Below, piece after piece: positions 3,174 through 29,461 of a stretch of 64,000 nucleotides of DNA; the stretch's first letter is position 1, and each line of letters begins with the position of its first letter. The DNA is from Planctomycetota bacterium. GTDB taxonomy: Bacteria; Planctomycetota; Phycisphaerae; WQYP01. Position numbers and translations under genes: made by a program. The DNA lies in NCBI GenBank assembly GCA_021810145.1, contig JAJZJL010000002.1, forward strand, positions 4,643 through 68,642. The letters are read 5' to 3'. The notes under the pieces are model-generated. The model saw only the letters and a list, made by a program, of their open reading frames with translations. It did not search any database and was not told the DNA's origin.

Positions 3174-3751
3174 CCTTTCCGCGCACAGTCAGCGCGATCC
3201 TCAACCCGCGCCCCGCCTGCTTCCAATTCCGTCTGGCATCGCAAAGCGCAACATATTTCCGCAGCTTGATTGTTATTGTTAGATGCACGAATGCGAAACG
3301 CAAGCGATATTTTTTAGATTGTTTATCCACCCACATCCATGTAAGTTTCGGCTACCGCCCTGGAATTCCGTCGGGATGCGATGAGCTTTCAATGACCGCT
3401 CTACCGGATGTGACATACATTTTACCCTTGTCAATACTTGATAATTGTGCATATTTCAGTCTGTCATGCGGGGATCGACATGCTCTTCGCCATGCACAGA
3501 TTTCACGAACATTCTCATGAGTGATTAGGACCTTTACGGATATGCGGACACGGAGATTCACCTATCCCCATTACCGCGTTTTTCTGATTCTGATTTTCAA
3601 CCATACGACCGCGGTTACGGACCTAAGATTTTCACCGATGGCCTTTATGGTTAAACGACCTATATCCGGTAGAGGGATTGTCCTGATGATTTTAACGGCA
3701 TCAGCACATTACCATTGAATCGATGCAGAGCAGAGGCTCGCTTGGGTGGTG

Positions 3752-3767
3752 TGTGAATCGATTCACG
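3752..3767 (+). promoter_or_regulatory. CRP/FNR-family-like palindrome TGTGA-N6-TCACG. It is embedded in a 30-bp near-perfect inverted repeat (~3745-3774), ~40 nt upstream of the hypF start.
   Basis: Read directly: ggtggtgTGTGAatcgatTCACGcaccacc. The arms are 15 bp with one mismatch. The spacing and half-sites match the CRP/FNR consensus TGTGA-N6-TCACA. It sits in the divergent hppA/hypF intergenic region. Confidence 0.4.
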
Positions 3768-3806
3768 CACCACCGGAAGCCTGATGGCTCGGCCGAGGTG
3801 TGCAGC

Positions 3807-6191: not shown

Positions 6192-6469
6192 CGGTACCGG
6201 CAAAACTGATTCGACAGGATGGCCAGCAGGGCATTGTCGACCTGCACGGCAATCGCCTGCCGGTTAATACGATGATGACTCCCGAGGCCAAACCCGGCGA
6301 CTGGATCTTAATTCATGCCGGATTCGCCATCGAGCGGCTTAATCCGGAGGCGGCCCGTGAAACCTTTGCACTGTTGGAAGAAGTTGACCGAACCAGCGGC
6401 AACAGCGATTACCGGCCCGATGCGCAACAAAACACCGCAACACCGGCTGTGCGAGGAGATATGTCATGA
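6182..6469 (+). CDS. hypC: Hydrogenase maturation factor HypC/HupF.
   Basis: Starts MCLAVPAKLI. The Met-Cys start is the HypC hallmark and the protein has an OB-fold-like sequence. GGAG sits 9 nt upstream. It overlaps the hypF stop. The C-terminal extension is longer than in canonical ~90-aa HypC. Confidence 0.85.
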   Translation: MCLAVPAKLIRQDGQQGIVDLHGNRLPVNTMMTPEAKPGDWILIHAGFAIERLNPEAARETFALLEEVDRTSGNSDYRPDAQQNTATPAVRGDMS

Positions 6470-7602
6470 GTTCGACACACGCCTTCACGGATAATCTGTT
6501 GCAGCGCCTGCGGGAAGCGGCAGCAGCCATTGGACAGAACGTGGCGTTCATGGAAGTATGCGGAACGCATACCACCAGCGCTTTTCGTTGCGGCTTGCCC
6601 AGCGTTCTGCCTCCCAATGTACGACTCATCAGCGGGCCGGGCTGTCCGGTGTGTGTCACGTCCCAGGGCGATATTGACAGGCTCATTGATCTCGGCGCGC
6701 GGCGGGATGTCATTTTATGCACCTACGGCGACATGCTGCGGGTTCCGGGACGGCATGGAAATCTTGAAAATGCCCGGGTACGTGGAGGCCGGATTGAGGT
6801 TGTCTACAGCAGCATGGACGCAGTAAAACTGGCGCAAAAGCAACCGGATCGTGAAGTGGTATTTGCCGCGGTAGGCTTTGAAACCACCGCTCCGGCCACG
6901 GCTGCGGCCATTTGCGAAGCGCAACGGCTCAATATTGGAAATTTCAGCGTCCTGGCAAGTCACAAACGCATCATTCCCGCGATGCGGGCACTTTTGACCG
7001 ATGGAGAAATTCCCAAAATCAAAGGATTTCTCTGTCCGGGGCATGTGTCGGTGATTATCGGCTCGGAAGTATATCAGAGCATTGTTGATCAGTTCGGGGT
7101 GTCATGTGTGGTCGGTGGTTTTGAACCACCGCAATTGCTTTCCGCCCTGGTATGTCTGATCGAACTGGTTGTAAATAACAAAACCGCCCTGGTGAATCAG
7201 TACCCCGAAGCGGTGCACGCCAGGGGAAATCGCTGGGCACTGACACTGCTTGAGAAGATTTTTGAACCCGGCGCGGCCCGCTGGCGCGGCATGGGTACCA
7301 TACCTGACAGCGGCCTGATACTGCGAAGCGATTATCAGAGCTTTGATGCAGCACGGCGATTCAATCTGCCTGAACCGCAGGAGCGTGAACCGGCAGGATG
7401 TATTTGCGGCAAGGTTATCAGTGGCGCGGCGCTTCCCGGACAATGCCGGCTCTTTGGACGAGCCTGTACGCCCATTTCACCGATCGGCCCCTGCATGGTC
7501 AGTTCCGAAGGTACATGCTCGGCATGGTTTAAGTATGGTAAAAGCAACCAACGGACAATTCCGCCTGCACACTTAAATGAATTGCTGGAGGTTTCGTCAT
7601 GA
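6466..7602 (+). CDS. hypD: Hydrogenase maturation factor HypD.
   Basis: FMEVCGTHT, GPGCPVCV and CPGHVSVI Fe-S motifs characteristic of HypD. ATGA overlap with hypC. Confidence 0.92.
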   Translation: MSSTHAFTDNLLQRLREAAAAIGQNVAFMEVCGTHTTSAFRCGLPSVLPPNVRLISGPGCPVCVTSQGDIDRLIDLGARRDVILCTYGDMLRVPGRHGNLENARVRGGRIEVVYSSMDAVKLAQKQPDREVVFAAVGFETTAPATAAAICEAQRLNIGNFSVLASHKRIIPAMRALLTDGEIPKIKGFLCPGHVSVIIGSEVYQSIVDQFGVSCVVGGFEPPQLLSALVCLIELVVNNKTALVNQYPEAVHARGNRWALTLLEKIFEPGAARWRGMGTIPDSGLILRSDYQSFDAARRFNLPEPQEREPAGCICGKVISGAALPGQCRLFGRACTPISPIGPCMVSSEGTCSAWFKYGKSNQRTIPPAHLNELLEVSS

Positions 7603-8654
7603 ACAGACCATCTGTCAATCATGCAACAGCGCAGCTTCACGCCACACCCGCGCCATTTACGCACATCGCCTTGGCACATGGCGGCGGTGGGCAATTAACC
7701 GATGCACTGCTGCGCGATATTGTCATGCCCCGACTGGGTAATCCGGCGTTATCCCAGCTTCTGGACTCCGGGATTATTCCAGGCGGAAAACTCGCCTTAA
7801 CCATTGACAGCTACGTTGTTCAACCGCTGTTTTTCCCCGGCGGCGATATTGGTCGCCTGGCCGTCAGCGGAACAGTCAATGATTTAGCCGTATGCGGCGC
7901 GCATCCGCGGGCTTTGGCGCTGTCGATGATTCTGGCGGAAGGTTTGGATCGCAAAGTGCTTGAGCGCGTGCTGGACTCGGTCGCGGCAACCGCCGGCGAA
8001 GCGGGCGTGAGGATTATTACCGGCGACACCAAAGTGGTGGGAAGCGGACAGGCGGACGGAATATATCTGACTTCGGCCGGGGTTGGTGAATTAATGGGCC
8101 ATCCGCTACCGCATCCGGATCATATCGAGCCTGGCGATGTGCTGATGATCAACGGCCCGATTGGAGAGCATGGCCTGGCAGTGATGCTGGCACGTGAAAT
8201 GCCCGAAGTGGAAAGTGCTTTACGCAGCGATGTATCGCCGCTCAATGGTCTTATCGAACACTTGCGATGCGCGGTTCCGGAGGTGGTTTTTATGCGTGAT
8301 CCGACGCGCGGTGGTCTGGCTGGCGTTGCCGCCGATCTGGCCGCACGCACGGGCTTGCGCATCAATCTCGAGGAAACGCACATTCCCATTCGCCCGGAGG
8401 CCAAACACGCCGCGGACATGCTGGGGCTGGACCCGCTGGACATTGCCAATGAAGGAAAAGTGTTTGTGGCGGTGCGGCCCGCCCAGGCCCAGGCCGCGCT
8501 TCATGCCATGCGACAACATCCGCAGGGACGTGAGTCGCAGATTATCGGCTATGTAACTTCTGAAAAAGACGGGGTCTGTACTCTGCATACGTCCATCGGC
8601 GGATGGAGAGTGCTGCAGAAGCCATATGGAGAACAATTGCCGCGCATCTGCTGA
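7599..8654 (+). CDS. hypE: Hydrogenase maturation factor HypE (AIR-synthase-related ATPase).
   Basis: PurM-like fold motifs (LAHGGGG, GDTKVVG) and the HypE-specific C-terminal ...PRIC with the terminal Cys. ATGA overlap with hypD. Confidence 0.92.
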   Translation: MNRPSVNHATAQLHATPAPFTHIALAHGGGGQLTDALLRDIVMPRLGNPALSQLLDSGIIPGGKLALTIDSYVVQPLFFPGGDIGRLAVSGTVNDLAVCGAHPRALALSMILAEGLDRKVLERVLDSVAATAGEAGVRIITGDTKVVGSGQADGIYLTSAGVGELMGHPLPHPDHIEPGDVLMINGPIGEHGLAVMLAREMPEVESALRSDVSPLNGLIEHLRCAVPEVVFMRDPTRGGLAGVAADLAARTGLRINLEETHIPIRPEAKHAADMLGLDPLDIANEGKVFVAVRPAQAQAALHAMRQHPQGRESQIIGYVTSEKDGVCTLHTSIGGWRVLQKPYGEQLPRIC

Positions 8655-8693: not shown

Positions 8694-9206
8694 ATGCCAG
8701 TTAATACGGTTCTACCCAAGCCTCCCACCGAAGACAAACGGTGGAAAATTATTGAAACCACCATGCGGCGCAATGATTTCCAACCCGACGCCCTGATTGA
8801 AAGTCTGCACAGCGTGCAGCAGACGTTCGGCTTTCTGGATATTCCATCCATGCGTTGGGTGGCCGCAGCGCTGAAAGTGCCTCTGTCCAAGGTGTACGGC
8901 GTTGCAACATTTTATCATTTTTTCACACTTAAACCGCAGGGGAAGCATGTTTGTGTCGTCTGCATGGGAACGGCATGTTACATCAAAGGCGGCCGGCAGC
9001 TTCTGGATGAAATACAGCGGCATTATGCCATTGCGGAAGGACAGACCACCAAAGATGGCCAGCTTTCCCTGCTGGTGGCCCGATGCATTGGAGCATGCGG
9101 CTTGGCTCCGACGGTGGTGGTTGACGGAAATGTTCTTGGCAAACGGTCTGCCGCGGAACTTCTGGCGGCTCTGGATGAAACGGTGGAAAGGAAGCGGCAA
9201 TCATGA
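8694..9206 (+). CDS. hoxE: Bidirectional hydrogenase diaphorase subunit HoxE (NuoE-like 2Fe-2S thioredoxin-fold protein).
   Basis: CxxxxC...CIGACGLAP NuoE-type 2Fe-2S motif (VCVVCMGTACYIKGG...ARCIGACGLAPTVVVDG). Sits upstream of hoxF. Confidence 0.85.
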   Translation: MPVNTVLPKPPTEDKRWKIIETTMRRNDFQPDALIESLHSVQQTFGFLDIPSMRWVAAALKVPLSKVYGVATFYHFFTLKPQGKHVCVVCMGTACYIKGGRQLLDEIQRHYAIAEGQTTKDGQLSLLVARCIGACGLAPTVVVDGNVLGKRSAAELLAALDETVERKRQS

Positions 9207-10861
9207 AACCTGAAGAACTAATAAGCATGATGGAAAAGGCACGCGCGGATTCGTCCGCTTTCGAGCATGAAATCCGTGTCTGCACGGAATCAGGATGCAT
9301 GAGCCTGCAGAGCGATACCCTGCTCAAAGCCCTTGGAGATGAAGTCAAAACCCGCGGCATGACGGATAAAATCTGCGTCAAAGGCGTTGGCTGCATGGGG
9401 CTTTGCTGCAATGGACCGCTGGTTCAGGCCGACACGGCAATGTATCAATTTGCCAAGCCGGAACATGCCTCCGCTATTGTGCAAGGACTTTCAACACAGC
9501 CCGTTGCCGAGTTGCTCTGCAACACACAGCAGCCCTTCTTCACCCGCCAAAAACTTGTCGTGCGGGAGAATTCGGGGCACGTTGATCCGGAAAGCCTGGT
9601 CGACTGCATCGCCCACGGTGCCTATCAGGCCCTGCTTAAAGCCCTCACCACGATGACGCCCCATCAGGTCATACAGGAAATTTCTGATTCCGGCCTGCGC
9701 GGACGCGGCGGAGCGGGTTTCCCAACCGGACTGAAATGGGCCACCGTCTCAAAAGCCGGCGGCAGCGACAAATATGTGATCTGTAATGGTGATGAAGGCG
9801 ATCCGGGCGCATTCATGGATCGCAGTGTCATGGAAGGTGATCCGCATCGGGTGCTGGAAGGAATGGCCATCGCCGCATATGCGGTAGGTGCCGAAAACGG
9901 CGTTATTTATGTCCGGGCGGAGTACCCTCTGGCGGTCAAACGCCTGACGAAAGCCATCAATCTGGCGCGACGGCATGAGTTGATCGGCCATAATATTTTT
10001 GGAACCAAATTCAGCTTTAATGTCGAATTGCGGCTCGGTGCCGGAGCGTTTGTATGCGGCGAGGAAACCGCACTGATCGCAAGTGTGGAAGGCAAGCGCG
10101 GCGTTCCGCGGCCACGGCCGCCCTACCCGGCGAATTCCGGCCTCTTTGGCTGTCCCACGCTTATCAACAATGTGGAGACATATGCCAATGTCGCCCCGAT
10201 TATCAACAAGGGAGCGGCATGGTTTGCGCAGATCGGAACGGAAAAAAGCAAAGGCACAAAAATTTTCGCTCTGACCGGAACCGTCAAAAACTGCGGCCTG
10301 ATTGAAGTCGCCATGGGAATGCCGCTTCGCGAGATCATTTACGATATCGCCGGCGGCGTTCCGAATGGAAAAGCATTTAAAGCCGTGCAGACCGGCGGTC
10401 CATCGGGCGGGTGTATTCCCGCGGAACTTTTGGATATTACCGTGGATTATGAATCGCTGGCCAAAGCCGGATCCATCATGGGGTCCGGCGGCATGATTGT
10501 CATGGACGAAACCAGCAACATGGTGGATGTGGCCCGGTTCTTCATGGAATTCTGCATGACTGAAAGCTGCGGCAAGTGCGTTCCCTGCCGCGTGGGAACC
10601 TATGAAATGCATCAACTGTTGAATCGTATTTGTGAAAAGCGGGGCACGCCGGAAGACCTGCAATTACTGAAGGATTTATGCGGTATGGTCAAACAGACCA
10701 GCCTGTGCGGATTGGGTCAATCCGCACCAAATCCGGTACTCAGCACGTTGCGCTATTTTGAACATGAATACCTGGATCTTGTCAATCAAACTCAGGCCGC
10801 GCACGCAGACCAAAGCCCTGCCGCCACGGGTGAACATATTGAACTGGAGGTGCTCCCATGA
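9203..10861 (+). CDS. hoxF: Bidirectional hydrogenase diaphorase subunit HoxF (NuoF-like NAD(H)/FMN-binding).
   Basis: GRGGAGFPTGLKW FMN/NADH-binding motif, C-terminal ESCGKCVPCRVG 4Fe-4S motif and N-terminal 2Fe-2S thioredoxin-like domain. ATGA overlap with hoxE. Confidence 0.9.
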   Translation: MKPEELISMMEKARADSSAFEHEIRVCTESGCMSLQSDTLLKALGDEVKTRGMTDKICVKGVGCMGLCCNGPLVQADTAMYQFAKPEHASAIVQGLSTQPVAELLCNTQQPFFTRQKLVVRENSGHVDPESLVDCIAHGAYQALLKALTTMTPHQVIQEISDSGLRGRGGAGFPTGLKWATVSKAGGSDKYVICNGDEGDPGAFMDRSVMEGDPHRVLEGMAIAAYAVGAENGVIYVRAEYPLAVKRLTKAINLARRHELIGHNIFGTKFSFNVELRLGAGAFVCGEETALIASVEGKRGVPRPRPPYPANSGLFGCPTLINNVETYANVAPIINKGAAWFAQIGTEKSKGTKIFALTGTVKNCGLIEVAMGMPLREIIYDIAGGVPNGKAFKAVQTGGPSGGCIPAELLDITVDYESLAKAGSIMGSGGMIVMDETSNMVDVARFFMEFCMTESCGKCVPCRVGTYEMHQLLNRICEKRGTPEDLQLLKDLCGMVKQTSLCGLGQSAPNPVLSTLRYFEHEYLDLVNQTQAAHADQSPAATGEHIELEVLP

Positions 10862-11586
10862 GACCGGCTACATCAACCGTTGAATCTCTCACACTGCAAA
10901 TCGACGGCAAAGACATAAGCTGCCGAAGCGGTGAGACAATTCTTCAGGTTGCGCGTGATAACAATATTGATATTCCGACGCTGTGTTTTCTGGAGGGCCT
11001 TACGGTTTGGGGAGGTTGCCGGTTGTGCATGGTGGAGATTGCCGGATCACCCAAGCTTCATGCCGCCTGCGCCACAACCTGCGCCGAGGGGATGGTGGTC
11101 AGCACGGCGTCCCCGCGTCTGAAAGAATATCGCAAGATGATTGTGGAAATGCTCTTTGCGGAACGAAATCATGTGTGCGCGGTATGCGTCAGCAATGGGC
11201 ACTGTGAATTGCAGAATATGGCAGTGAAACTGGAAATTGACCATGTGCGGTTCCCGTATCGCTTCCCGCATCTGGAAGTTGATAATTCACACGATGCCAT
11301 GCGACTGGATCAAAACCGATGCATTTTATGCGTACGCTGCGTGCGCGTATGCGGAGAAATTGAAGGCGCTCATACCAAAGATGTAAAAGGCCGGGGCGTG
11401 CTGGCCGCCATTATTCACGATCTGGATCAGCCCTGGGGTGAAAGCGAGACGTGCACCGCCTGCGGAAAATGTGTTAACGTGTGCCCCACAGGCGCATTAA
11501 CCCACCGCGGCACGGCCGTTGGTGAAATGACCAAAAAAGCCCAGTTTTTACCGTATCTGACATTAATGCGGGAGGCCAAATCATGA
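10858..11586 (+). CDS. hoxU: Bidirectional hydrogenase diaphorase subunit HoxU (NuoG N-terminal-like Fe-S protein).
   Basis: 2Fe-2S ferredoxin N-terminus (CRSGETILQ...CFLEGLTVWGGCRLCMVEI) followed by CxxCxxCxxxCP 4Fe-4S motifs. Confidence 0.88.
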   Translation: MRPATSTVESLTLQIDGKDISCRSGETILQVARDNNIDIPTLCFLEGLTVWGGCRLCMVEIAGSPKLHAACATTCAEGMVVSTASPRLKEYRKMIVEMLFAERNHVCAVCVSNGHCELQNMAVKLEIDHVRFPYRFPHLEVDNSHDAMRLDQNRCILCVRCVRVCGEIEGAHTKDVKGRGVLAAIIHDLDQPWGESETCTACGKCVNVCPTGALTHRGTAVGEMTKKAQFLPYLTLMREAKS

Positions 11587-12149
11587 CCAGTTCCACAACC
11601 AGACCAACCGTGGCCACCGTGTGGCTTGATGGCTGCTCGGGGTGCCATATGAGCCTCATGGACCTTGATGAACGGCTTATTACGCTTGCCGGACTGGTGG
11701 ATATTTTACATTCGCCGGTGGTAGACCCGAAAGAATTCCCGCAAAGCGTGGATTTGACGCTCGTGGAAGGCGCGGTCAGCAGCGAAGAGGATCTGCATAA
11801 AGCCAGAACCATCCGCGCGCACAGCAAATATGTCATCGCCATGGGCGATTGTGCGGTTACAGGCAATGTTCCGGCCATGCGTAACTACTGGGATCGCTCT
11901 GAATTATTCGACCGCGCTTATGTGGAAAATGCCCAGGAACCCGCGTCGCCCGAAGAACGCAAAGCCTTGCTTCCGCTGGTGGTCGTACCGCCTCTACGCC
12001 CCCATGCCACACCGCTGCATGAGGTGATCAAAGTTGATGTTTTTCTGCCCGGTTGCCCGCCACCGGCTGATGCGATCTGGTTTGTGCTGACGGAATTACT
12101 GGCCGGACGCGTGCCCAACGCCATGAGCGTCTCGCGCTTTGGAAAATAG
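11583..12149 (+). CDS. hoxY: [NiFe]-hydrogenase small subunit HoxY.
   Basis: VWLDGCSGCHMSL proximal-cluster motif and GDCAVTG...PGCPP motifs of the NiFe small subunit. ATGA overlap with hoxU. Confidence 0.88.
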   Translation: MTSSTTRPTVATVWLDGCSGCHMSLMDLDERLITLAGLVDILHSPVVDPKEFPQSVDLTLVEGAVSSEEDLHKARTIRAHSKYVIAMGDCAVTGNVPAMRNYWDRSELFDRAYVENAQEPASPEERKALLPLVVVPPLRPHATPLHEVIKVDVFLPGCPPPADAIWFVLTELLAGRVPNAMSVSRFGK

Positions 12150-12190
12150 CCGGCGACCGGACGAACGGGCTTTGAAAAGAGGATGTTATC

Positions 12191-13621
12191 ATGACTCAAA
12201 CCATTACCATTGACGGCGTTACCCGCATTGAAGGACATGCGAAAATAACGATCCATCTGGATGATGCCGGAAAAGTCCGCGATGCGCAGTTTCATGTGAC
12301 TCAATTCCGCGGATTTGAGAAATTTGTGGAAGGCCGGCCGCTGACCGAGATGCCTGGCATTATGGCTCGAATCTGCGGAATCTGTCCTGTCAGTCATCTG
12401 ATGGCGGCGGCCAAGGCGTGCGATGATATTCTGGCGGTCCAAATACCTCCCACGGCGAATAAACTTCGCCGGATAATGAATTTAGCGCAATTGGTGCAGA
12501 GCCACGCGCTATCGTTTTTCCATCTCTCGAGTCCGGATCTGCTTTTTGGTATGGACGGCGATCCCATGCGGCGCAATATCTTCGGGCTGATTCGAGAACA
12601 TCCGGATTTTGCGCGTGATGGCATACTGCTGCGCAAATTCGGACAGGATGTTATCGCCTTGCTGGGGGGAAAAAAAATTCACCCGGCCTGGGTGGTACCG
12701 GGCGGAGTCAATTCACCTCTGACGGAAGAAACCCGCGACGCGATTTTGAAAGAAATTCCCGCCGCCATCGCCCGTGTGGATCGGGCCTTGAATTATTTTC
12801 ATGAAATTGAAGATCACTACCCCGCCGAAGTCGATGCGTTCGCTAACTTCCCGACGCTATTTGCCGGACTGGTAACGCCTGAAGGCCTCCTGGAACATTA
12901 TGACGGAGCCTTGAAATTTGTCGATCACAACGCCACGCCGGTGGCGGAACTCAGCTTGAGCGATAGCAGCCATTATGGAACGCTTATCAGCGAAGCAGTT
13001 GAGAATTATTCATACCTCAAGTTCCCGTATTTCAAGCCCCGTGGATACCCTGCCGGAATTTACCGCGTGGGCCCGCTGGCGAGGCTGGTTGTGGCTGAAC
13101 GATGCGGTACCATACGAGCGGACATGGAATTAGGTGTCTTTCGCACGCGTCTGGGCCGGGCGCCTCAGAGCAGTTTTCATTATCACTGGGCGCGGCTCAT
13201 TGAAATTCTCTTTGGCATAGAAATGATACAGCGACTGCTGCAGTATCCGGATATTCTCAACACCCATATCCGTTCGCGTGCCAGACCCAATCGGCTTGAG
13301 GGCGTGGGTATTTCCGAGGCTCCACGCGGCACCCTGATTCACCATTATAAAATCGATGAAAATGGCCTGATCCGATGGGCCAACCTGATCATCGCCACCG
13401 GGCATAACAACCTGGCGATGAATCTGGGCGTGCGACAGGTTGCCGAGAGATTTGTCGATGGCAACAAACTGCAGGAAGGCATGCTCAATCGCGTGGAGGC
13501 GGTGATTCGCTGCTTTGATCCGTGCCTGAGCTGCTCCACCCACGCGCTGGGGCAAATGCCGCTGCGAATTGAACTTTGTAGGTCAGATGGCGAGGTGTGC
13601 GATGTGCTGCAACGAAACTGA
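12191..13621 (+). CDS. hoxH: [NiFe]-hydrogenase large subunit HoxH.
   Basis: N-terminal RIEGHAKI...[10 protein letters not shown] and C-terminal [12 protein letters not shown] Ni-binding motifs, plus a C-terminal tail as expected for protease processing. Confidence 0.92.
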
Positions 13622-14174
13622 TTTCGCCGCCGCCCGGTATCACACATTGCTGATCGGCTATGGCAACACCTTACGCGCTGATGACGGAGCCGGGCCGGCG
13701 GTCATCAAAAAGCTCTCCGCGGTTCTGCCGGCGTATTGCGTTGAATTTGTGCGGCTCATCGCGTGCGGACAATTAACGCCGGAGTTGGCGCTGGACATCG
13801 CCGAGGTCCGTCGTGTTATTTTCGTGGATGCCAGCATGGCGCTTTCTCCCGGGCAATTGACTGTCAGGCCAATCCATCGGGAAGAATCCAACATCCTTAC
13901 CGGCCACCATTTCACGCCCGGAATACTGCTGAACATGACCCAACGCGCCTTCGGCGCATGTCCCATCGCGTGGGTGGCGGCGATCGGATGTCAGTCCACG
14001 GACATCGGTGACAAGCTTACTCCACAAATCGCCGCCGCGGTTGATCGGCTGGTATCGCATCTGCGTAACGGCATCTGCCAGTGGATTAACGGAAACAATT
14101 TTTTGCCGGAAGTGCTCACGGATGTGGTACCGGCTGCCATCATGCACAAACAAGCAGGAAAGGATTATTTATGA
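13602..14174 (+). CDS. hoxW: Hydrogenase maturation endopeptidase (HoxW/HybD family).
   Basis: LLIGYGNTLRADDGAGP motif typical of hydrogenase maturation proteases. It overlaps the hoxH 3' end. The start is uncertain; I chose the ATG at 13602 over 13569. Confidence 0.78.
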   Translation: MCCNETDFAAARYHTLLIGYGNTLRADDGAGPAVIKKLSAVLPAYCVEFVRLIACGQLTPELALDIAEVRRVIFVDASMALSPGQLTVRPIHREESNILTGHHFTPGILLNMTQRAFGACPIAWVAAIGCQSTDIGDKLTPQIAAAVDRLVSHLRNGICQWINGNNFLPEVLTDVVPAAIMHKQAGKDYL

Positions 14175-17100
14175 ATACTCAGGGACATACAACCATTGAC
14201 GGCAATGAGGCGGCAGCCAGCGTGGCCTACCGTACCAGCGAAGCGGCGGTGATTTACCCCATTACTCCCTCAAGCCCGATGGGGGAATTTTTTGATGAGT
14301 GGTCCACACGCGGGCAAGCCAATATCTGGGGTGATGTGCCGAAAATTGTGGAAATGCAGAGTGAAGGCGGCGCGATCGGCGCTGTGCATGGTGCCCTGCA
14401 GGCCGGATCGCTATGCACCACCGCCACCTCATCACAGGGATTGCTGCTGATGATTCCCAACCTATACAAAATCGCGGGCGAACTTACCAGTTTCGTCATT
14501 CAGGTGGCGGCGCGTTCTCTCTCGACCCATGCACTGTCCATTTTCGGCGATCACTCTGATGTGATGGCATGCCGGCAGACGGGTTTCGCCATGCTGGCTT
14601 CGATGAATGTACAGGAAGCACACGATCAGGCGGCTGTTGCATTGGCAGCCAGTTTGCGAAGCAGAGTTCCATTCATCCATTTCTTTGACGGGTTTCGCAC
14701 TTCGCATGAGCTTAACGGCGTTGCCATGCTTTCCGATGACCAGCTTCGCACCCTGATTCCCCAACAGTGGATTGCCGCGCATCGGAAGCGGGCGTTAACA
14801 CCTGACGCACCGGTGCTGCGCGGTACGGCGCAGAATCCAGATACGTTTTTCCAGGCGCGCGAAGCGGCCAACCCTTTTTACGATGCGCTGCCGGGCATCA
14901 TTGTTGAAGAAATGCGGCGGTTTGGACAACTTATCGGGCGGCCGTATGAACCTTATGAATACAGAGGCCATCCACAGGCGTCGCGCGTGATGATCATCAT
15001 GGGATCGGGAGCCGAAACCACCAGTGAAACGGTGCGGTATCTCCTGCAACAGGATCAGCGCGTCGGTTGCGTGATTGTGCGAATGTTTCGTCCGTTTGCG
15101 GGGGATTTGCTGGTCAGGGCCATTCCCGCAACGGCCCGGAAAATCGCAGTCATGGATCGCACGAAAGAGCCGGGATCCGCCGGCGAACCGCTGTATCAGG
15201 ATGTCGTGACCTCACTGGCTCGGGCGAAGATGACCGGTGCATTACCCATGGGTGAATTGCCGATGGTCATCGGTGGGCGATATGGCTTATCAAGCAAGGA
15301 ATTTACACCCGCGATGGTCAAAGCCGTATTCGACGAGCTGGATCAGGCCCATCCAAAGGCCCGGTTTACAGTCGGAATTAATGATGACGTTACACATCTG
15401 TCACTGAAAGTTGATGAGAGTTTTGATCTGCCTATGGGAGATGTGGTTCAGGCCGTATTTTATGGATTAGGCGCGGATGGTACCGTGGGAGCCAATAAGA
15501 ACTCCATAAAAATTATCGGCGATCAGACCGACTTACATGCCCAGGGTTATTTTGTTTACGATTCCAAAAAATCAGGTGCCATGACCATCTCGCATCTGCG
15601 ATTCGGAAAAGAGCCGATCCATGCCGCTTATCTGATTCGCAAGGCCAACTTCATTGCCTGCCACCAGTTTGAATTTCTCCAGCGCATGGACATTCTGGAG
15701 TTGGCCGCCCCCGGTTCGGTATTTCTGCTTAACGCACCGTTGGAGGCTCAACAACTATGGGATCATCTGCCGGTGGAAATCCAGCAGACCATTATCGAAA
15801 AGCGCCTGCGACTGTTTGCGATAGACGCAAACGCCGTAGCCCGCGACACCGGCATGGGCCGGCGAATCAATACCATTATGCAAACAGCTTTTTTTGCCAT
15901 ATCCGGGGTGTTACCGCGCGCTGCGGCGATCGAAGCCATTAAAAAGGCGATCAAAAAGTCCTATCAAAAGCGTGGCGAGGAAGTGGTTCAGCGGAATTAC
16001 AACGCGGTGGATCAGACGTTGGCCAATTTGCATGAAATCACCGTTCCTGCCACCGCCACTTCCGCCATTCGCCAGGAAAGCTTCACACAGCCGGCCATGC
16101 CGCCATTCACCCAACGGGTGCAGGCGGTCATGATGGCGGGAAAGGGCGATTTGTTGCCTGTCAGCGCATTTCCAGTTGACGGCACCTGGCCGACCGGCAC
16201 AACCAAATGGGAAAAGCGCAACATCGCGGTAGAAATTCCGGAATGGGATCAGCAATTCTGCATCCAATGCAACAAGTGCGCCTTTGTTTGTCCGCATGCG
16301 GCCATTCGGGCGAAACTTTATGACGCCGGCGAATTAGCCGGTGCGCCAAAACTCTTTAAGCACATGGCCTACAAAGCGCCCGATTTTAAGGGCATGTCCT
16401 ATACGCTGCAGGTGGCTCCCGAAGATTGCACGGGATGCGGATTGTGTGTGGAAGTCTGCCCGGCCAAGGATAAGGCAAATCCCAAGCACAAAGCCATTAA
16501 TATGGTTCCACAACGCCCCATCCGCGATCGTGAACGCGACAACTTCAATTTCTTTCTGAACATTCCGGAACTGGATCGCACACGCATTGCGCGATTGGAT
16601 GTGAAAGCCAGTCAATTCCTGCTGCCATTGTTTGAATTCAGCGGAGCCTGCGCCGGGTGCGGCGAAACGCCTTATATTAAATTACTGACCCAATTGTTTG
16701 GAGATCGATTGATTATCGCCAATGCCACAGGTTGTTCCTCAATCTATGGCGGCAATCTTCCCACCACCCCCTATACCACCAACCGCGATGGCCGCGGCCC
16801 GGCATGGAATAATTCCCTCTTTGAGGATAATGCCGAATTCGGTATGGGTATGCGGCTGAGCGTGGACCAGCACATCCGGCAAGCGCAACGTCTGCTGCGG
16901 GAACTTTCGGGTCATATCGGCGATAGCTTAACTTCCGCCATCCTTCAAGCGGATCAAACATCGGAAAAGGCAATAGCCGATCAGCGGCAACGGGTGGTGG
17001 AATTGCGCAAAGTCCTCCAGAACATCGATCAACCTCAAGCCGCGGCGCTGGCGCAAATAGCCGATTATCTGGTTCGCAAGAGCGTCTGGATCATCGGTGG

Positions 17101-17782
17101 CGATGGATGGGCATATGACATTGATTTTGGCGGACTGGATCATGTTTTGAGTCTGCCTTTTGATATCAATATTCTGGTTCTGGACACGGAAGTGTATTCC
17201 AATACCGGCGGCCAAAGTTCCAAGAGCACTCCCATTGGCGCAGTAGCCAAATTTGCCGCCGCCGGAAAAGCCACCCAGAAAAAGGACCTGGGACTTATGG
17301 CGATGAGTTATCGGCATGCCTATGTGGCAAGTGTCGCTTTTGGAGCCAATGATAATCACACCGTTCGCGTTTTCAGTGAAGCCGCAAGTTACCCCGGCCC
17401 ATCATTGATTATTGCATACAGCCACTGCATTGCGCATGGGTATGATCTCAAATTCGGGATCAATCAGCAGAAATTAGCCGTGGATAGCGGCGTGTGGCCG
17501 CTGTATCACTATGACCCGCGACTGCTGGCCCGCGGAAAACCGCCGCTGCAGATTGATTCGCCGAGCCAAAAGGCCAATGTGCGCGATTATCTTCGCAATG
17601 AGACACGCTTTTCCATGATTGAAAAAATGAATCCTGAAAGATTCCGCATGCTTTCGGAAGCATCCGTACGCAATACCGCCGAACGATTGGCACTGTACAG
17701 CCGGCTTGCGAGCTTTGCGTTTCCGGAACCCGAGGCCCCGGCTGAAGCAAGTCTAGCCGCCGATGAGGCGAAAGGAGAATAA
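14171..17782 (+). CDS. nifJ: Pyruvate:ferredoxin (flavodoxin) oxidoreductase, single-polypeptide PFOR.
   Basis: 1203 aa. The N-terminus MNTQGHTTIDGNEAAASVAYRTSEAAVIYPITPSS is canonical. It has two 4Fe-4S ferredoxin motifs (CIQCNKCAFVCPHAAI, CTGCGLCVEVCP) and TPP-binding GGDGWAYDIDFGG. ATGA overlap with hoxW. Confidence 0.93.
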   Translation: MNTQGHTTIDGNEAAASVAYRTSEAAVIYPITPSSPMGEFFDEWSTRGQANIWGDVPKIVEMQSEGGAIGAVHGALQAGSLCTTATSSQGLLLMIPNLYKIAGELTSFVIQVAARSLSTHALSIFGDHSDVMACRQTGFAMLASMNVQEAHDQAAVALAASLRSRVPFIHFFDGFRTSHELNGVAMLSDDQLRTLIPQQWIAAHRKRALTPDAPVLRGTAQNPDTFFQAREAANPFYDALPGIIVEEMRRFGQLIGRPYEPYEYRGHPQASRVMIIMGSGAETTSETVRYLLQQDQRVGCVIVRMFRPFAGDLLVRAIPATARKIAVMDRTKEPGSAGEPLYQDVVTSLARAKMTGALPMGELPMVIGGRYGLSSKEFTPAMVKAVFDELDQAHPKARFTVGINDDVTHLSLKVDESFDLPMGDVVQAVFYGLGADGTVGANKNSIKIIGDQTDLHAQGYFVYDSKKSGAMTISHLRFGKEPIHAAYLIRKANFIACHQFEFLQRMDILELAAPGSVFLLNAPLEAQQLWDHLPVEIQQTIIEKRLRLFAIDANAVARDTGMGRRINTIMQTAFFAISGVLPRAAAIEAIKKAIKKSYQKRGEEVVQRNYNAVDQTLANLHEITVPATATSAIRQESFTQPAMPPFTQRVQAVMMAGKGDLLPVSAFPVDGTWPTGTTKWEKRNIAVEIPEWDQQFCIQCNKCAFVCPHAAIRAKLYDAGELAGAPKLFKHMAYKAPDFKGMSYTLQVAPEDCTGCGLCVEVCPAKDKANPKHKAINMVPQRPIRDRERDNFNFFLNIPELDRTRIARLDVKASQFLLPLFEFSGACAGCGETPYIKLLTQLFGDRLIIANATGCSSIYGGNLPTTPYTTNRDGRGPAWNNSLFEDNAEFGMGMRLSVDQHIRQAQRLLRELSGHIGDSLTSAILQADQTSEKAIADQRQRVVELRKVLQNIDQPQAAALAQIADYLVRKSVWIIGGDGWAYDIDFGGLDHVLSLPFDINILVLDTEVYSNTGGQSSKSTPIGAVAKFAAAGKATQKKDLGLMAMSYRHAYVASVAFGANDNHTVRVFSEAASYPGPSLIIAYSHCIAHGYDLKFGINQQKLAVDSGVWPLYHYDPRLLARGKPPLQIDSPSQKANVRDYLRNETRFSMIEKMNPERFRMLSEASVRNTAERLALYSRLASFAFPEPEAPAEASLAADEAKGE

Positions 17783-17786
17783 GGTT

Positions 17787-18809
17787 ATGGATATGTCTAC
17801 AAACTATATGGGATTTGAACTTCCGCATCCGCTGATTCCCGGAGCATCTCCGATGGTCGGCGATATGGATACCGTTCGCCGCCTGGAAGATGCCGGCGCT
17901 CCAATGATTATCATGCACTCAATATTTGAGGAGCAACTGGTTAAAGAAGAGCTGTACGTGGACTGGACACTAACCCAGGGAGAGTACAACTCAAGCGAAG
18001 CATCCAGCTATCTTCCAACGCCGTACAATTTTCGTCTGGGACCGGATGCCTATCTTACGCAGTTGCAGAAAATAAAGGCTGCCGTGCATGTGCCGGTGAT
18101 TGCCTCGCTGAATGGGCGTACGCTTGGCGGCTGGACCGCCTACGCGAAGTTGCTGGAGGACGCCGGAGCCGACGGCATTGAATTGAATCTCTACGATCTG
18201 GCACTTTCAGCGTTTCGGGATTCGACGGATGTTGAACGCGAATCTCTGGCGATCATACAGGACGTGCGAAAGGCGGTTGAAGTTCCTTTGGCCGTGAAGC
18301 TGTCACCGTTTTATACTTCGCCGGTGCATTTTGTCGCTCAGGCAGTCAAATCCGGTGCGGGAAGCGTGGTGATCTTCAATCGCTTTTATCAAGCCGACAT
18401 TGATATTGAAAATCTCACGGTAACACGGGAACTCAAGCTCTCCACATCCGATGAACTTTTACCCCGCCTGCGATGGACCGCGGCGATCAGTGGACAGGTA
18501 GATTGCCAGGTGGCCATTACCGGTGGCGTTCAGAATGCCCGCGACGCCGTAAAGTGCCTGATGGTTGGGGCAGACGCCGTGCAAATCGTTTCAGCGCTTT
18601 TGGAATATGGTGCGGACCATCTGACGGTATTGCGCAATGCCCTGGCCGAATGGATGCAGTCCCATGAATATACATCCGTGAAACAGATGAAAGGCTCCAT
18701 GAGCATGGCGCGATCATCGGAGCCGGAACTCTTCGAGCGAGGCAATTATATTCAGATTCTTCAGGGGTGGAAAAAAGCGGAATCCGGCATGGAGTGTTTC
18801 TGGAGCTGA
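17787..18809 (+). CDS. Dihydroorotate-dehydrogenase-like FMN TIM-barrel protein lacking the catalytic Cys/Ser.
   Basis: Class-1 DHOD-like layout: PVIASLNG, VKLSP, IFNRF, ITGGV and VGADAVQIVSAL are all present. The active-site NISCPN is replaced by NLYDLA. Start 5 nt after the nifJ stop. Confidence 0.7.
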   Translation: MDMSTNYMGFELPHPLIPGASPMVGDMDTVRRLEDAGAPMIIMHSIFEEQLVKEELYVDWTLTQGEYNSSEASSYLPTPYNFRLGPDAYLTQLQKIKAAVHVPVIASLNGRTLGGWTAYAKLLEDAGADGIELNLYDLALSAFRDSTDVERESLAIIQDVRKAVEVPLAVKLSPFYTSPVHFVAQAVKSGAGSVVIFNRFYQADIDIENLTVTRELKLSTSDELLPRLRWTAAISGQVDCQVAITGGVQNARDAVKCLMVGADAVQIVSALLEYGADHLTVLRNALAEWMQSHEYTSVKQMKGSMSMARSSEPELFERGNYIQILQGWKKAESGMECFWS

Positions 18810-18812
18810 ATC

Positions 18813-19247
18813 ATGCATGAAGTTTCAATTGCGGAATCGTTGATTGCGTTAATCCGCCGTCACCTGCCGGCGCATCAGCGCCTTGTTCAGGCTACGGTGC
18901 GCATCGGACCGATGCACGGCATAGTACCGGAGGCCATGGAAATGGCATGGAATATCGCCAGTGCTGATGCGGGCTGGAAGGGATCACGGTTAATCGTCAT
19001 GACACCGCCCTGGCGATTGCGTTGTGTGGTGTGCGGGCGCTGCTGGGAACCGGTAACGGTTGACGAGCATTGCGTTTGTGGAGCCGCACACGTTGAGATT
19101 TTAGGCGGCGATGAGTTCCAATTGGATAGCATTGATGTTCATTCGGCGGCGAAACATCGCAGGCGGAACACCGCGCGACATGGCCGAGGCCGTCCGAGAA
19201 CTTTTACAAGGGGAGTCGCACATGAGCACCAAAGTTCCCATCGTTGA
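18813..19247 (+). CDS. hypA: Hydrogenase nickel-incorporation protein HypA, with a ~30-aa basic C-terminal extension.
   Basis: MHEVSIAESLIALIRRHLP N-terminus with the MHE Ni-binding motif, and a Zn site CVVCGRCW...HCVCG. The ORF continues ~30 aa past the usual HypA end and overlaps hypB. Confidence 0.85.
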   Translation: MHEVSIAESLIALIRRHLPAHQRLVQATVRIGPMHGIVPEAMEMAWNIASADAGWKGSRLIVMTPPWRLRCVVCGRCWEPVTVDEHCVCGAAHVEILGGDEFQLDSIDVHSAAKHRRRNTARHGRGRPRTFTRGVAHEHQSSHR

Positions 19248-19932
19248 AAATGTGCTCAAACTTAACGATGAATTGGCCCTGCAGAATCGGGAACTTTTTC
19301 AACGCTCCGGTGTGTTTGCCGTGGATTTAATCGGTGCCCCCGGTGCGGGAAAAACCGCTCTTCTGGAGTTCACGCTTCGGCAACTCAAGGACGTCATCAA
19401 CATCGGCGTGATTGTCGGTGATCCGGCAACCAGCCGCGACGGAGATCGTCTGGCCAAATACTCGCGGCATATTGTGCAGGTCAACACCGGAAGCGGGTGC
19501 CACCTCGATGCGAATCAGGTGCGCCATGCCATGGATAAACTCAAACTCGCCGATCTGGATGTACTGATTATTGAAAACGTGGGAAATCTCATCTGCCCGG
19601 TCTCCTTTAATTTGGGCCAGCACTGCAAGATCGGCATGTTCAGCGTCAGTGAAGGCGATGACAAAGCCGCCAAGCATCCGAATCTGGTTGTATCCGCTGA
19701 TCTGCTGATTCTGAATAAAATGGATCTGATTCCTTATATCCCATTTGATCTCGCACGCTTCCGGCAGGATGTTGAACATCTTAATCGCGCCGCCCCTTTG
19801 CTGGAAATTTCCGTTGTGCGCAATCAGGCCGCATCATGGCTGGACTGGTTGACGGCTCGCGCCGGGCAACAGAAGTCATTCCGAAAGGCCGGCAAGCATA
19901 AGGAAAAGGCCGTGGCAAGGAGTCAACGATGA
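19222..19932 (+). CDS. hypB: Hydrogenase nickel-incorporation GTPase HypB.
   Basis: GAPGAGKTALLE P-loop, ENVGNLICP and NKMDL G-motifs of the HypB/UreG family. I chose the ATG at 19222 with an AAGGGGAG RBS. It lacks an N-terminal His-stretch. Confidence 0.9.
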   Translation: MSTKVPIVENVLKLNDELALQNRELFQRSGVFAVDLIGAPGAGKTALLEFTLRQLKDVINIGVIVGDPATSRDGDRLAKYSRHIVQVNTGSGCHLDANQVRHAMDKLKLADLDVLIIENVGNLICPVSFNLGQHCKIGMFSVSEGDDKAAKHPNLVVSADLLILNKMDLIPYIPFDLARFRQDVEHLNRAAPLLEISVVRNQAASWLDWLTARAGQQKSFRKAGKHKEKAVARSQR

Positions 19933-20312
19933 AACTTGCGGTACCGGTATTGAATGGACAACTGTTCCCACACTTCGGCAGAAGTTCCGAGTTTGCGTTT
20001 TTTCAGTTCGATGCCACCACCGGAAACATTGTGTCAAAAGAGATTCTCGCCGCTCCCCCGCATGAACCGGGAATACTTCCCGCCTGGCTTCAATCGCACC
20101 GGATCAGTGTTTTGATAACCGGAGGAATCGGCGCACAGGCGGCCGAGCTGTGCCGCCGCAATGCAATACAGGTTCTGGCCGGCGCTCCTTCGGAGCCGGT
20201 TGAAAGGATCGTTACCGACTGGTTGCAGGGGCGTCTCGAACTTCATGCCAACGTGTGTACGCGGGATGAACATCATGAACATCGTCAGTGCGGAGAACAT
20301 CACCATGTCTGA
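19929..20312 (+). CDS. NifX/NafY/NifB-C-terminal-like (dinitrogenase FeMo-cofactor-binding family) small protein with a His-rich C-terminal tail.
   Basis: MKLAVPVLNGQLFPHFGRSSEFAFFQF...ISVLITGGIGAQAAELCRRNAIQVLAG matches the PF02579-type pattern (MKIAIP..HFG....GGIG..A...L...GI.V). The tail is HANVCTRDEHHEHRQCGEHHHV. ATGA overlap with hypB. Confidence 0.65.
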   Translation: MKLAVPVLNGQLFPHFGRSSEFAFFQFDATTGNIVSKEILAAPPHEPGILPAWLQSHRISVLITGGIGAQAAELCRRNAIQVLAGAPSEPVERIVTDWLQGRLELHANVCTRDEHHEHRQCGEHHHV

Positions 20313-28006: not shown

Positions 28007-29461
28007 ATGATTGATCGTGTAAGAACCAAAACAGTCATTACCATGGGACCGGCCTGTGCCACGGCTGAAATATTCAGCCAACTGGTGCAAACCGGCGTGT
28101 CGGTGGTGCGGCTGAATTTTTCACATGGTGACCTGGCACAACGCGAGGCATTTTTGGCCGTGGCCCGCAGCGAATCACATCATCCGCCTCTGGCAATCAT
28201 GGGCGATTTGTGCGGGCCGAAAATACGCCTGGGCAAGGTCATGGACGGCGGAATGGCCGTGGCAAAAGGTGATGTGATTGCCATTCAGCGCGAGCCGATT
28301 CTGGGGCAAAACAATCTCCTGTCTTCCAATTATGCCTGTCTGGTCGATGATGTGCAGGTTGGACAATCCATTCTCATTGATGATGGTTGCATTCGCGCCA
28401 CGGTAATTGAAAAAGCTCCGGATATTGTCCGATGCCGCATTGATGTCGGCGGCAGAATTCAATCCAACAAAGGGATCAATCTGCCGCAGACCCGGCTTTC
28501 AATTCCCAGCGTAACGGATAAAGACTGGCGGGATATTGACTGGGCCATTGAACACCAGTTGGACTATCTGGCTCTGTCATTTGTGCGCAGCGCCGACGAC
28601 GTGCAAAGTGTTCGCCGGTATCTTGAGAGCCGAAAATCCGATATTGATCTGGTGGCAAAAATTGAAATGCCGCAGGCGATTGATGATCTTTCCGCCATTC
28701 TGGATTGTGCGGATGCGGTATTGGTGGCGCGCGGCGACATGGGTGTGGAAATGGAACTTACCGCCGTTCCGCTGTTGCAGAAAAAAATTGTCGATGCGGC
28801 CCACGAAGCCGGCAAACCGGTTATTGTCGCCACGCAGATGCTGCAATCCATGGTCGATAATCCCACGCCGACCCGCGCGGAGGTTTCGGATGTGGCCAAT
28901 GCCATTTTAGATGGTGCCGACGCCGTGATGCTTTCCGGCGAAACGGCCGTTGGAAAATATCCGCTTGAGGCCGTGCAGACCTTGCGCGATATCGCGGATA
29001 AAACCGAACGGTATATTGTCCAGAAGGGCATTCGCACGGAGCCGCCGCGGTTATTACAAATCAGTCACCACCGCACCGCCGCCATCGCGCACGGAGCCAT
29101 CGCCATTGCGCGTGATATTAACGCCCGGATGGTGGTAGTCTGGTCACAGGCCGGAGGGTCGGCTCGATATCTGTCAAAAAACCGCTTTCCAATCCCGATT
29201 GTCGCCCTGTCAACGGATCCGGCGGCGGTGCGCCGTATGGCAATGTATTATGGCGTCACGGCAGTTCATGCGGTACTTCCACAGCACTTTGACGATCTGC
29301 CCGCGATGGTCGATGATCTATTGCAGCGTGAGCACTGGGCGCATCAGGGAGATCGCGTTGTGATTGCCGCCGGAGCACCCATTGGAACCGCCGGTGCCAC
29401 CAATAGTTTAAGCGTCTATACGGTCGGCGACCATGCCCGCACCAGCGGTGAAAGGCAATGA
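28007..29461 (+). CDS. pyk: Pyruvate kinase.
   Basis: TKTVITMGPAC, VVRLNFSHGD, MVARGDMGVE, LSGETA and C-terminal regulatory domain motifs. Confidence 0.92.
   Translation: MIDRVRTKTVITMGPACATAEIFSQLVQTGVSVVRLNFSHGDLAQREAFLAVARSESHHPPLAIMGDLCGPKIRLGKVMDGGMAVAKGDVIAIQREPILGQNNLLSSNYACLVDDVQVGQSILIDDGCIRATVIEKAPDIVRCRIDVGGRIQSNKGINLPQTRLSIPSVTDKDWRDIDWAIEHQLDYLALSFVRSADDVQSVRRYLESRKSDIDLVAKIEMPQAIDDLSAILDCADAVLVARGDMGVEMELTAVPLLQKKIVDAAHEAGKPVIVATQMLQSMVDNPTPTRAEVSDVANAILDGADAVMLSGETAVGKYPLEAVQTLRDIADKTERYIVQKGIRTEPPRLLQISHHRTAAIAHGAIAIARDINARMVVVWSQAGGSARYLSKNRFPIPIVALSTDPAAVRRMAMYYGVTAVHAVLPQHFDDLPAMVDDLLQREHWAHQGDRVVIAAGAPIGTAGATNSLSVYTVGDHARTSGERQ

Follow-up and report, generated by a model that had tools for sequence, protein, structure and literature searches.

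In the PyrD subunit of dihydroorotate dehydrogenase (DHOD) B, or DHODB, and in the corresponding domain of dihydropyrimidine dehydrogenase (DPD), flavin mononucleotide (FMN) sits in a barrel and is fed by, or feeds, the iron-sulfur (Fe-S) clusters of a partner domain. Pyruvate:ferredoxin/flavodoxin oxidoreductase (PFOR), which is central to anaerobic and microaerobic carbon metabolism, to cyanobacterial fermentation and to H2 production, can also be wired to a flavoprotein: in the pyruvate:NADP+ oxidoreductase (PNO) of Euglena and Cryptosporidium, as in the PFOR-flavodoxin-FqrB chain of Helicobacter pylori, its electrons go to a dedicated flavoprotein module and not to free ferredoxin. Here we analysed a 64,000-nucleotide stretch of a Phycisphaerae genome of the Planctomycetota (contig JAJZJL010000002.1, positions 4,643 to 68,642; hereafter the window), in which a gene for a DHOD-like FMN-barrel protein lies directly behind nifJ, the gene of single-chain PFOR, and ahead of hypA, inside an operon for a NAD-linked Hox hydrogenase. 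A preliminary description of this DNA had taken the protein for a DHOD-like barrel without the catalytic Cys or Ser and proposed for it a redox or flavin-carrier accessory role at the hydrogenase.

Our data point to PFOR as its partner. A gene for a flavoprotein-like protein of about 335 aa follows the PFOR gene in near-obligate synteny in more than 15 phyla, and the window gene belongs to this family, which is already named (NCBIfam NF005741, also PRK07565, 'dihydroorotate dehydrogenase-like protein') and is functionally uncharacterised in the literature. That the protein is a member of the family, is not a DHOD and is linked to PFOR, all three taken together, we regard as close to certain. 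We take it for a standalone FMN-binding triosephosphate isomerase (TIM)-barrel protein, neither a dihydroorotate nor a dihydropyrimidine dehydrogenase, whose gene makes up a two-gene cassette together with that of nifJ-type PFOR; to this explanation as a whole, including the electron-transfer mechanism proposed below, we give a probability somewhat below one half (about 0.45).

Linkage to the PFOR gene across bacteria

Neighbourhoods of family members were compared in two samples. The first comprised the best 80 loci, one genome per GTDB species, with 41–55% identity to the window protein, in which nifJ and hox genes were sought by tblastn with the proteins of the window. It covers Acidobacteriota, Verrucomicrobiota, Planctomycetota, Gemmatimonadota, Myxococcota, several orders of Proteobacteria, Propionibacteriaceae, Nitrospirota, Ignavibacteriota, Chloroflexota, Bacteroidota, Cyanobacteria, Deinococcota, NC10 and others. 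In 74 of these 80 loci, distributed over at least 15 phyla, nifJ ends fewer than 400 nt ahead of the DHOD-like gene and in the same orientation. The other six comprise three loci with nifJ within 2.7 kb, two whose upstream sequence is too short and one true exception (L055). Two loci, L052 (5958-9966) and L073 (6434-9944), are exceptions in appearance only, since their upstream nifJ is split into several frames, probably through assembly frameshifts rather than because the genes are pseudogenes. The distance from the nifJ stop to the start of the DHOD-like gene has a median of 11 nt; it is 18 nt or less in 41 of 69 junctions, and 14 of the 69 overlap or abut, many by –4 or –8. Such junctions are typical of translationally coupled operon partners.

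The second sample (84 loci) came from a profile search with distant members and from a scan of metagenome contigs, and counts were then stratified by identity to the window protein. In the second sample, nifJ is adjacent upstream in 28 of the 84 loci. The stratum with at least 40% identity (106 informative loci from more than 15 phyla) shows 98 cases of adjacent upstream nifJ, four in which it is nearby in another arrangement and four without it. When flanking ORFs (open reading frames) were clustered in 80 and then in 53 loci, no recurrent neighbour other than nifJ emerged, be it a GltD/PreT-like or PyrK-like protein, a ferredoxin or a flavodoxin, and nifJ is the sole recurrent neighbour even in the distant branch. 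Because adjacency to nifJ recurs across phyla and no other neighbour does, the conserved unit is nifJ plus the DHOD-like gene.

This distribution bears directly on the accessory role at the Hox hydrogenase, or in Hyp maturation, which had been suggested by the position of the gene between hoxW/nifJ and hypA. The position itself is real: relatives at 89% and 69% identity keep the order hypE, hoxEFUYH, hoxW, nifJ, DHOD-like gene, hypA, hypB. A second, independent juxtaposition is seen in a Deinococcota metagenome-assembled genome (MAG) of the Trueperaceae (L060, 6415-16606), with the order nifJ, DHOD-like gene, hoxE-F-U-Y-H, hoxW, and it suggests recurrent selection for co-expression of PFOR and Hox. 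However, only 2 of the 164 loci sampled beyond the window's own clade have hox genes nearby, and among the best 80 GTDB loci they are present at L060 only. Akkermansiaceae loci L018 and L021 have nifJ and no hox genes in their 10-kb flanks, and nifJ accompanies the protein in each of the two hox-associated cases. Pfam and NCBIfam scans gave no Hyp or Hox family match for the protein. Thus, being wedged between PFOR and hypA holds for the window and its Phycisphaerae relatives, while the link with hydrogenase is rare elsewhere in the family; the nifJ-DHOD-like cassette is widespread, and its insertion among hox and hyp genes is specific to this lineage. Since the family sits directly behind nifJ across many phyla, the protein is better seen as a partner of PFOR than as a hydrogenase accessory. 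The latter role is largely refuted by synteny, we consider it highly improbable, and a new accessory factor of hydrogenase need no longer be invoked.

Several published observations fit with the linkage. In Synechocystis, nifJ (sll0741), sll0743 and sll0744, the last annotated as 'dihydroorotate dehydrogenase (fumarate)', form one transcription unit; when cells enter dark microoxic conditions, this unit and the hox operon show a joint, transient induction (PMC11368403). PFOR of Propionibacterium is co-transcribed, and co-regulated at the transcript and protein levels, with a GltD-like and a DHOD-like gene, and the authors postulate a complex and call for its confirmation (PMC7650540); by our neighbourhood comparison the GltD-like neighbour is lineage-specific. 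In Chloroflexus aurantiacus, porA (Caur_2080) adjoins Caur_2081, which was counted as an aerobic 'dihydroorotate oxidase' in a genome that lists further DHOD genes beside it (PMC3150298). A 'dihydroorotate dehydrogenase-like protein' gene of Microcystis is among those most strongly induced at night (bioRxiv 10.1101/2024.07.07.602159). We take sll0744, Caur_2081 and the Propionibacterium gene as examples of NF005741, the first two judging from how they are annotated and where they lie; our sample includes members from Cyanobacteria and Chloroflexota that show the same synteny with nifJ (L054, L080, L044, L078). The earlier statement that no such role had been described was roughly right: the family has a name in NCBIfam and its co-transcription with PFOR has been noted, and a literature search found, apart from one paper that puts forward a hypothesis, only reports that annotate such genes or record their expression, with no functional characterisation.

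Family, active-site loop and fold

The window protein matches NF005741 / PRK07565 with 391.3 bits against a cut-off of 303 (E=3.4e–117), residues 1-329 aligning to positions 2-330 of the 335-position profile. According to their annotation, its closest homologs (82% and 70% identity) stem from Phycisphaerae MAGs. The family is large, with at least 7968 clusters at 90% identity (E≤1e–10) and 780 cluster representatives at 50% identity (E≤1e–30). With other members the protein shares a length of ∼330–340 aa, the ELN-x-Y loop, the FEEQ, FNRFYQ and ERxNY motifs and the place directly after nifJ; it differs from most of them, as do its close Phycisphaerae relatives, in having the pair between hoxW and hypA. 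The Pfam DHO_dh domain, a TIM-barrel fold with an FMN-binding core, exceeds its gathering threshold, whereas all models for the enzymes themselves fail by a wide margin: 78.9 bits against a cut-off of 269 for the PyrD equivalog NF005574, 72.4 against 270 and 52.1 against 301 for the DHOD models TIGR01037 and NF002702, and 70.4 against 335 for PreA (NF006183). This is the outcome of a profile search that had been proposed as a check on the preliminary description.

The best match in the PDB is the DHODB PyrD subunit of Lactococcus lactis, 1ep1 (phmmer, E=5e–8). In this alignment IELNLYDLALSAF stands opposite IELNISCPNVKHG, so that IELNLYDLA faces IELNISCPN, with Tyr136 in place of Ser, Asp137 in place of the catalytic Cys, Leu138 in place of Pro and Ala139 in place of Asn. 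The reading of NLYDLA as the counterpart of N(I/V)SCPN is therefore borne out. Conservation was counted in an alignment of 336 homologs that are 31–99% identical to the window protein. For the loop, the consensus reads E-L-N-[VIL]-Y-x-[LVI]-[PA]-T-D-P, with Asn134 in 328 and Tyr136 in 309 (∼92%) of the 336 sequences. The column equivalent to the catalytic Cys (137) is occupied by D, Y, E, F, H or S, and neither Cys nor Ser is ever conserved there. As position 137 is variable across all these homologs, the catalytic residue has been lost throughout the family and not in this gene alone.

The gene itself is a single, intact frame of 340 codons. A mechanical ORF listing begins it at an in-frame ATG at 17763, a start not used by homologs; the N-terminus MDMSTNYMGF, from 17787, agrees with their MD(M/L)STxYxGF. 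The Shine-Dalgarno sequence assigned to this start falls in the 3' end of nifJ, a layout typical of translational coupling. With the nifJ stop at 17780-17782 and the hypA ATG at 18813, 4 nt and 3 nt intervene on the two sides, and not the 5 and 4 reported before. The remaining two frames around the loop carry stops, so no frameshift conceals a canonical loop. A frameshift or mis-called ORF hiding SCPN, which had been named as a finding that could overturn the earlier claim, is ruled out by these stops together with the conservation of the loop in homologs, and the loop is genuine. The canonical pyrD motif N[ILV]S[CS]PN is absent from every frame of the window.

The preliminary description had also stated that the protein keeps almost all FMN and substrate motifs of class-1 DHODs. 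For the FMN core this is right: the equivalent residues Asn134, Lys171 (335/336), Asn198 (326/336), Gly247 (332/336) and Ser269 are retained and at least 95% conserved, Gly246-Gly247 with Asp253 also belongs to the retained core, and these residues match the FMN ligands of 1ep1 and 1dor in our alignments. For the substrate side it is not. None of the 336 family members has the N-x-x-G-[LFM]-x-N motif that marks DHODs and that carries Asn67 in L. lactis DHODA; in L. lactis DHODA numbering, the Lys43-equivalent position is variable (H in 174, P in 52, R in 37 and Y in 36 sequences), the Asn132 equivalent is Ala or Pro and that of Ser194 is an invariant Arg, Arg199. Of the orotate ligands, only the equivalents of the dual FMN/substrate residues Asn127 and Asn193 are kept. 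The N-terminal correspondences, including that of the Lys43 segment, come from a positional and strand comparison with the DHODA sequence and are to be taken as probable; beyond its N-terminal part, the DHODA sequence used agrees with the fragments displayed in our alignments. In comparison of hidden Markov models (HMM-HMM), only residues ∼84–306 align to DHODs.

These results leave little room for a genuine DHOD with a non-canonical catalytic base. Such an enzyme could pass the Pfam threshold, as the window protein does, and automated pipelines do name homologs 'dihydroorotate dehydrogenase (fumarate)'. Against this stand the failed PyrD equivalog, an unconserved base position, loss of NxxGLxN and of the Lys43 and Asn132 equivalents, and the genomic context, as pyr genes were never seen next to the gene in the sampled loci and Chloroflexus has other DHOD genes alongside. 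We consider this explanation almost certainly wrong, and the earlier expectation that the protein is unlikely to oxidise dihydroorotate is upheld on all these grounds. The family can be separated from other known barrels as well. A PreA or DPD FMN subunit was rejected, since the equivalog failed and both the catalytic Cys and the C-terminal 2x[4Fe-4S] domain are absent; a tRNA dihydrouridine synthase (Dus) was rejected because the protein is not a full-length Dus domain with a catalytic Cys and a tRNA-binding C-terminal domain.

Mislabelling of NF005741 proteins is frequent: it is seen in IMG ('dihydroorotate dehydrogenase (fumarate)'), in the Chloroflexus genome paper (PMC3150298) and in PMC3224940, where PRK07565 is equated with membrane PyrD of class 2, an assignment contradicted by the present data. 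Labels of this kind can distort metabolic reconstructions, and neither the window gene nor its relatives should be entered there as genes of pyrimidine biosynthesis.

In place of the lost motifs, the family has an invariant set of its own, comprising S45-x-F47-E48-E49-Q50, Y89, S107, N109, W116, E150, R199, S219, W289 and R318-x-x-Y321. Sixteen signature residues (S45, F47, E49, N109, W116, N134, Y136, E150, K171, N198, R199, S219, G247, W289, R318 and Y321) are at least 92% conserved across the homologs and all are present in the window protein. This pattern is relevant to the idea of a non-catalytic pseudoenzyme, that is, a structural or regulatory PFOR subunit descended from a DHOD. Such a subunit would be expected to keep strict synteny with PFOR and to have lost the catalytic Cys/Ser and the substrate motifs in all members, as is the case. 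It would not be expected to show the strong purifying selection on the FMN core evident from the counts for Lys171, Gly247 and Asn198, and the new invariant polar residues of the pocket argue for retained cofactor chemistry. We therefore regard a pseudoenzyme as very unlikely.

An AlphaFold2 model built from a 117-sequence alignment is a (beta/alpha)8 barrel with a mean predicted local distance difference test (pLDDT) score of 86.7 and a predicted template modelling (pTM) score of 0.85, confidence being lower only in a family-specific helical insert (∼51–84) and at the very end of the chain; a model based on 13 sequences had been of lower quality. Foldseek ranks PyrD of DHODB and the DPD FMN domain as the two closest folds. 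The structure prediction that was proposed along with the first description thus gave a confident barrel with these two proteins nearest. PDB sequence and profile searches found no solved structure of any NF005741 member.

Differences from the two nearest folds are considerable. Identity to 1ep1 is ∼20%; its catalytic Cys/SCPN loop is replaced by Y-x-[LVI]-[PA], NxxGLxN is missing, and the ∼30-residue helical insert (∼51–84) and an additional conserved C-terminal motif are present. While PyrD of DHODB is accompanied by PyrK, the neighbour here is PFOR, and there is no pyr operon. Compared with domain IV of DPD and with PreA, the window protein has neither the C-terminal 2x[4Fe-4S] domain nor an equivalent of Cys671, and lacks a conserved GltD/PreT-like neighbour. 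The domain scan found no Fer4 domain in its 340 aa and no NAD(P)H-binding domain is present; no Cys is conserved anywhere in the family alignment, and the protein therefore has no Fe-S cluster of its own.

Possible role of the pair

If the two proteins work together, electrons may pass from the clusters of PFOR to FMN, a mechanism that we propose tentatively and credit with a little less than an even chance. The DHOD-like protein would be made in step with PFOR and dock on it. Its predicted FMN would then take electrons that originate at the thiamine pyrophosphate (TPP) site from the distal cluster of the three-[4Fe-4S] chain of PFOR, by analogy with the wiring of DPD, where an Fe-S chain leads to an FMN barrel, and of DHODB, where the PyrK cluster serves the FMN of PyrD. 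Reduced FMN might in turn reduce an acceptor bound in the remodelled pocket formed by Asn134, Tyr136, Asn198, Arg199 and FEEQ, with Tyr136 as a possible proton donor, as in ene-reductases of the old yellow enzyme (OYE) type, and Arg199 as a likely anion binder. Electrons would then run along a split wire of the DPD type, leaving TPP and reaching FMN by way of three clusters. In the operon of the window, the cassette could couple pyruvate oxidation to the NAD-linked Hox hydrogenase or to the NAD(H) pool, directly or via a shared pool, with PFOR as its primary allegiance. PNO and the H. pylori chain provide an analogy only: PNO carries a fused FMN/FAD/NADPH module of the cytochrome-P450-reductase type and H. 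pylori uses flavodoxin, neither of which is a DHOD-fold TIM barrel.

Several points weigh against the cassette reading. Complex formation, bound FMN and electron transfer are all deduced from synteny and fold. Linkage to nifJ is loose in the divergent branch with less than 40% identity, mostly low-GC and Bacteroidota-like (including L089-L133), where nifJ is adjacent upstream in 4 loci, nearby but divergent or downstream in 8 and missing from 22; members at ∼43% identity are also found without nifJ in Nostocales and Bacteroidetes contexts. PFOR of the window looks canonical in comparison with that of Moorella thermoacetica (6cin) and has no obvious docking insert over its first ∼960 residues. 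Stable complexes often give rise to fusions somewhere, yet no fusion to PFOR or to any other domain was found in the top 150 of the 780 representatives, all of which are standalone proteins of ∼300–420 aa. Finally, a specific small-molecule substrate is suggested by the number of polar residues that are invariant in what was once the substrate pocket.

One rival explanation is an independent FMN enzyme of pyruvate-linked metabolism, acting on a small carboxylate or enoate by ene-reductase or alpha-hydroxy-acid-type chemistry through Tyr136, Arg199 and His44, and co-expressed with PFOR because of a shared pathway. It is difficult to see what would serve such an enzyme as electron donor or acceptor, which an FMN barrel needs, as neither a reductase nor an NAD(P)H-binding domain nor another conserved neighbour was found. 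Besides, the tight and often overlapping nifJ junctions point to stoichiometric co-production, and the closest folds are the Fe-S-coupled PyrD of DHODB and DPD, not oxidases. We consider an independent enzyme unlikely.

The taxonomic range of the cassette raises still another explanation, a protective electron sink which in oxygen-exposed bacteria would pass electrons of PFOR on to O2 or to a different oxidant, or would restore damaged PFOR by re-reduction. In aerobes and microaerobes the oxygen-sensitive enzyme would thereby stay functional. Class-1A DHODs do react with O2. The cassette is common in the largely aerobic or facultative Acidobacteriota, Verrucomicrobiota, Myxococcota, Cyanobacteria, Methylococcales, Trueperaceae and Gemmatimonadota, and cyanobacterial homologs are induced with nifJ at night or under microoxia. 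At the same time, it is found in the anaerobe-type Sedimentisphaerales, Thermodesulfobacteriota, Anaerolineae and Ignavibacteria, and a simple oxidase has no need of an invariant charged pocket, so that we hold a protective sink to be decidedly unlikely.

The cassette reading can be extended to the proposition that NifJ-type PFOR of most non-clostridial bacteria is a two-protein enzyme, with the DHOD-like barrel as its dedicated FMN terminus, and works as a ferredoxin-independent pyruvate:X oxidoreductase in which X might be NAD(P)+, a quinone, an enoate or O2. We think this extension doubtful. If it were true, part of the flow from PFOR to ferredoxin assumed for cyanobacteria, Acidobacteriota, Verrucomicrobiota (including those of the Akkermansia type), Planctomycetota and others would need re-routing, and in the operon studied here the DHOD-like protein would connect the oxidation of pyruvate with the NAD-linked Hox hydrogenase.

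Two family members in other surroundings can be described here. In the nostocalean Halotia wernerae (L085, 4637-7978), a member with ∼43% identity is flanked by a GCS2-like carboxylate-amine ligase gene (PF04107) and a Fer4_12/radical-SAM activase-like gene, with no nifJ nearby; members of this type may represent a subfamily with a different function. On a Bacteroidetes contig (L086, 3-6072) a member follows a gene for a 1683-aa PAS/GAF hybrid histidine kinase.

Features of the locus and neighbouring genes

Positions of the gene, of its motifs and of the surrounding operon are collected in Table 1.

Table 1. The DHOD-like gene, its sequence motifs and the hydrogenase/PFOR operon (positions in the window)
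Feature	Position	Strand	Remarks
DHOD-like FMN TIM-barrel gene	17787-18809	+	340 aa plus stop; NCBIfam NF005741 / PRK07565 member
Shine-Dalgarno AGGAG of the DHOD-like gene	17773-17777	+	within last nifJ codons, 9 nt before ATG
Motif S45-I-F-E-E-Q50, after strand beta-2	17919-17936	+	family-specific; S45, F47 and E49 ≥95%; sits where DHODs have the T-K-S Lys43 segment
Loop E132-L-N-L-Y-D-L-A-L-S-A142	18180-18212	+	replaces catalytic loop N-I-S-C-P-N of DHOD/DPD/Dus; from 1ep1 alignment and column counts
Lys171 (VKLSP)	18297-18299	+	equivalent of FMN-binding Lys164/170 in class-1 DHODs
Asn198-Arg199 (FNRFYQ)	18378-18383	+	Asn198 equals DHOD FMN/substrate Asn193; Arg199 family-invariant, in place of Ser/Thr
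Predicted FMN-phosphate-binding strands beta-7/beta-8, T-G246-G247-V...D253 and V-Q-I-V-S269-A	18522-18593	+	aligned to MGGV...VAVGTA of 1ep1
C-terminal motif E317-R318-G-N-Y321	18735-18749	+	R318 and Y321 ≥95%; no DHOD counterpart
hypF, hypD, hypE	3723-8654		NCBIfam/Pfam scans
hoxE, hoxF, hoxU, hoxY, hoxH and hoxW-type maturation protease	8694-14174	+	bidirectional NAD-linked [NiFe] hydrogenase; order as in relatives L081-L084
nifJ, single-chain PFOR	14171-17782	+	1203 aa; TIGR02176, 1717 bits; full-length match to PFOR structures 6cin and 1b0p
hypA (18813-19247) and hypB (listed from 19111)	18813-19932	+	

Two of the listed starts in the operon produce long overlaps: the hypB ORF as listed (19111) shares 137 nt with hypA, and that of hoxW (13569, TTG) shares 53 nt with hoxH. 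In relatives the overlaps are ∼20–26 nt, and the true starts of both genes are probably further downstream.

Directly after hypB lies a gene for a 127-aa PF02579 protein (Nitro_FeMo-Co, NifX/NifB-type; 19929-20312, + strand). The protein is similar to MrpORP, an Fe-S carrier, in the C-terminal domain of the latter, with a score of 97.6 bits that is below the cut-off of 450, and it is kept at the same place in relative L081 (12161-12574). A H+-translocating pyrophosphatase is encoded upstream of the hyp/hox cluster on the opposite strand (549-3173, –), and pyruvate kinase ∼9 kb downstream of nifJ (28007-29461, +).

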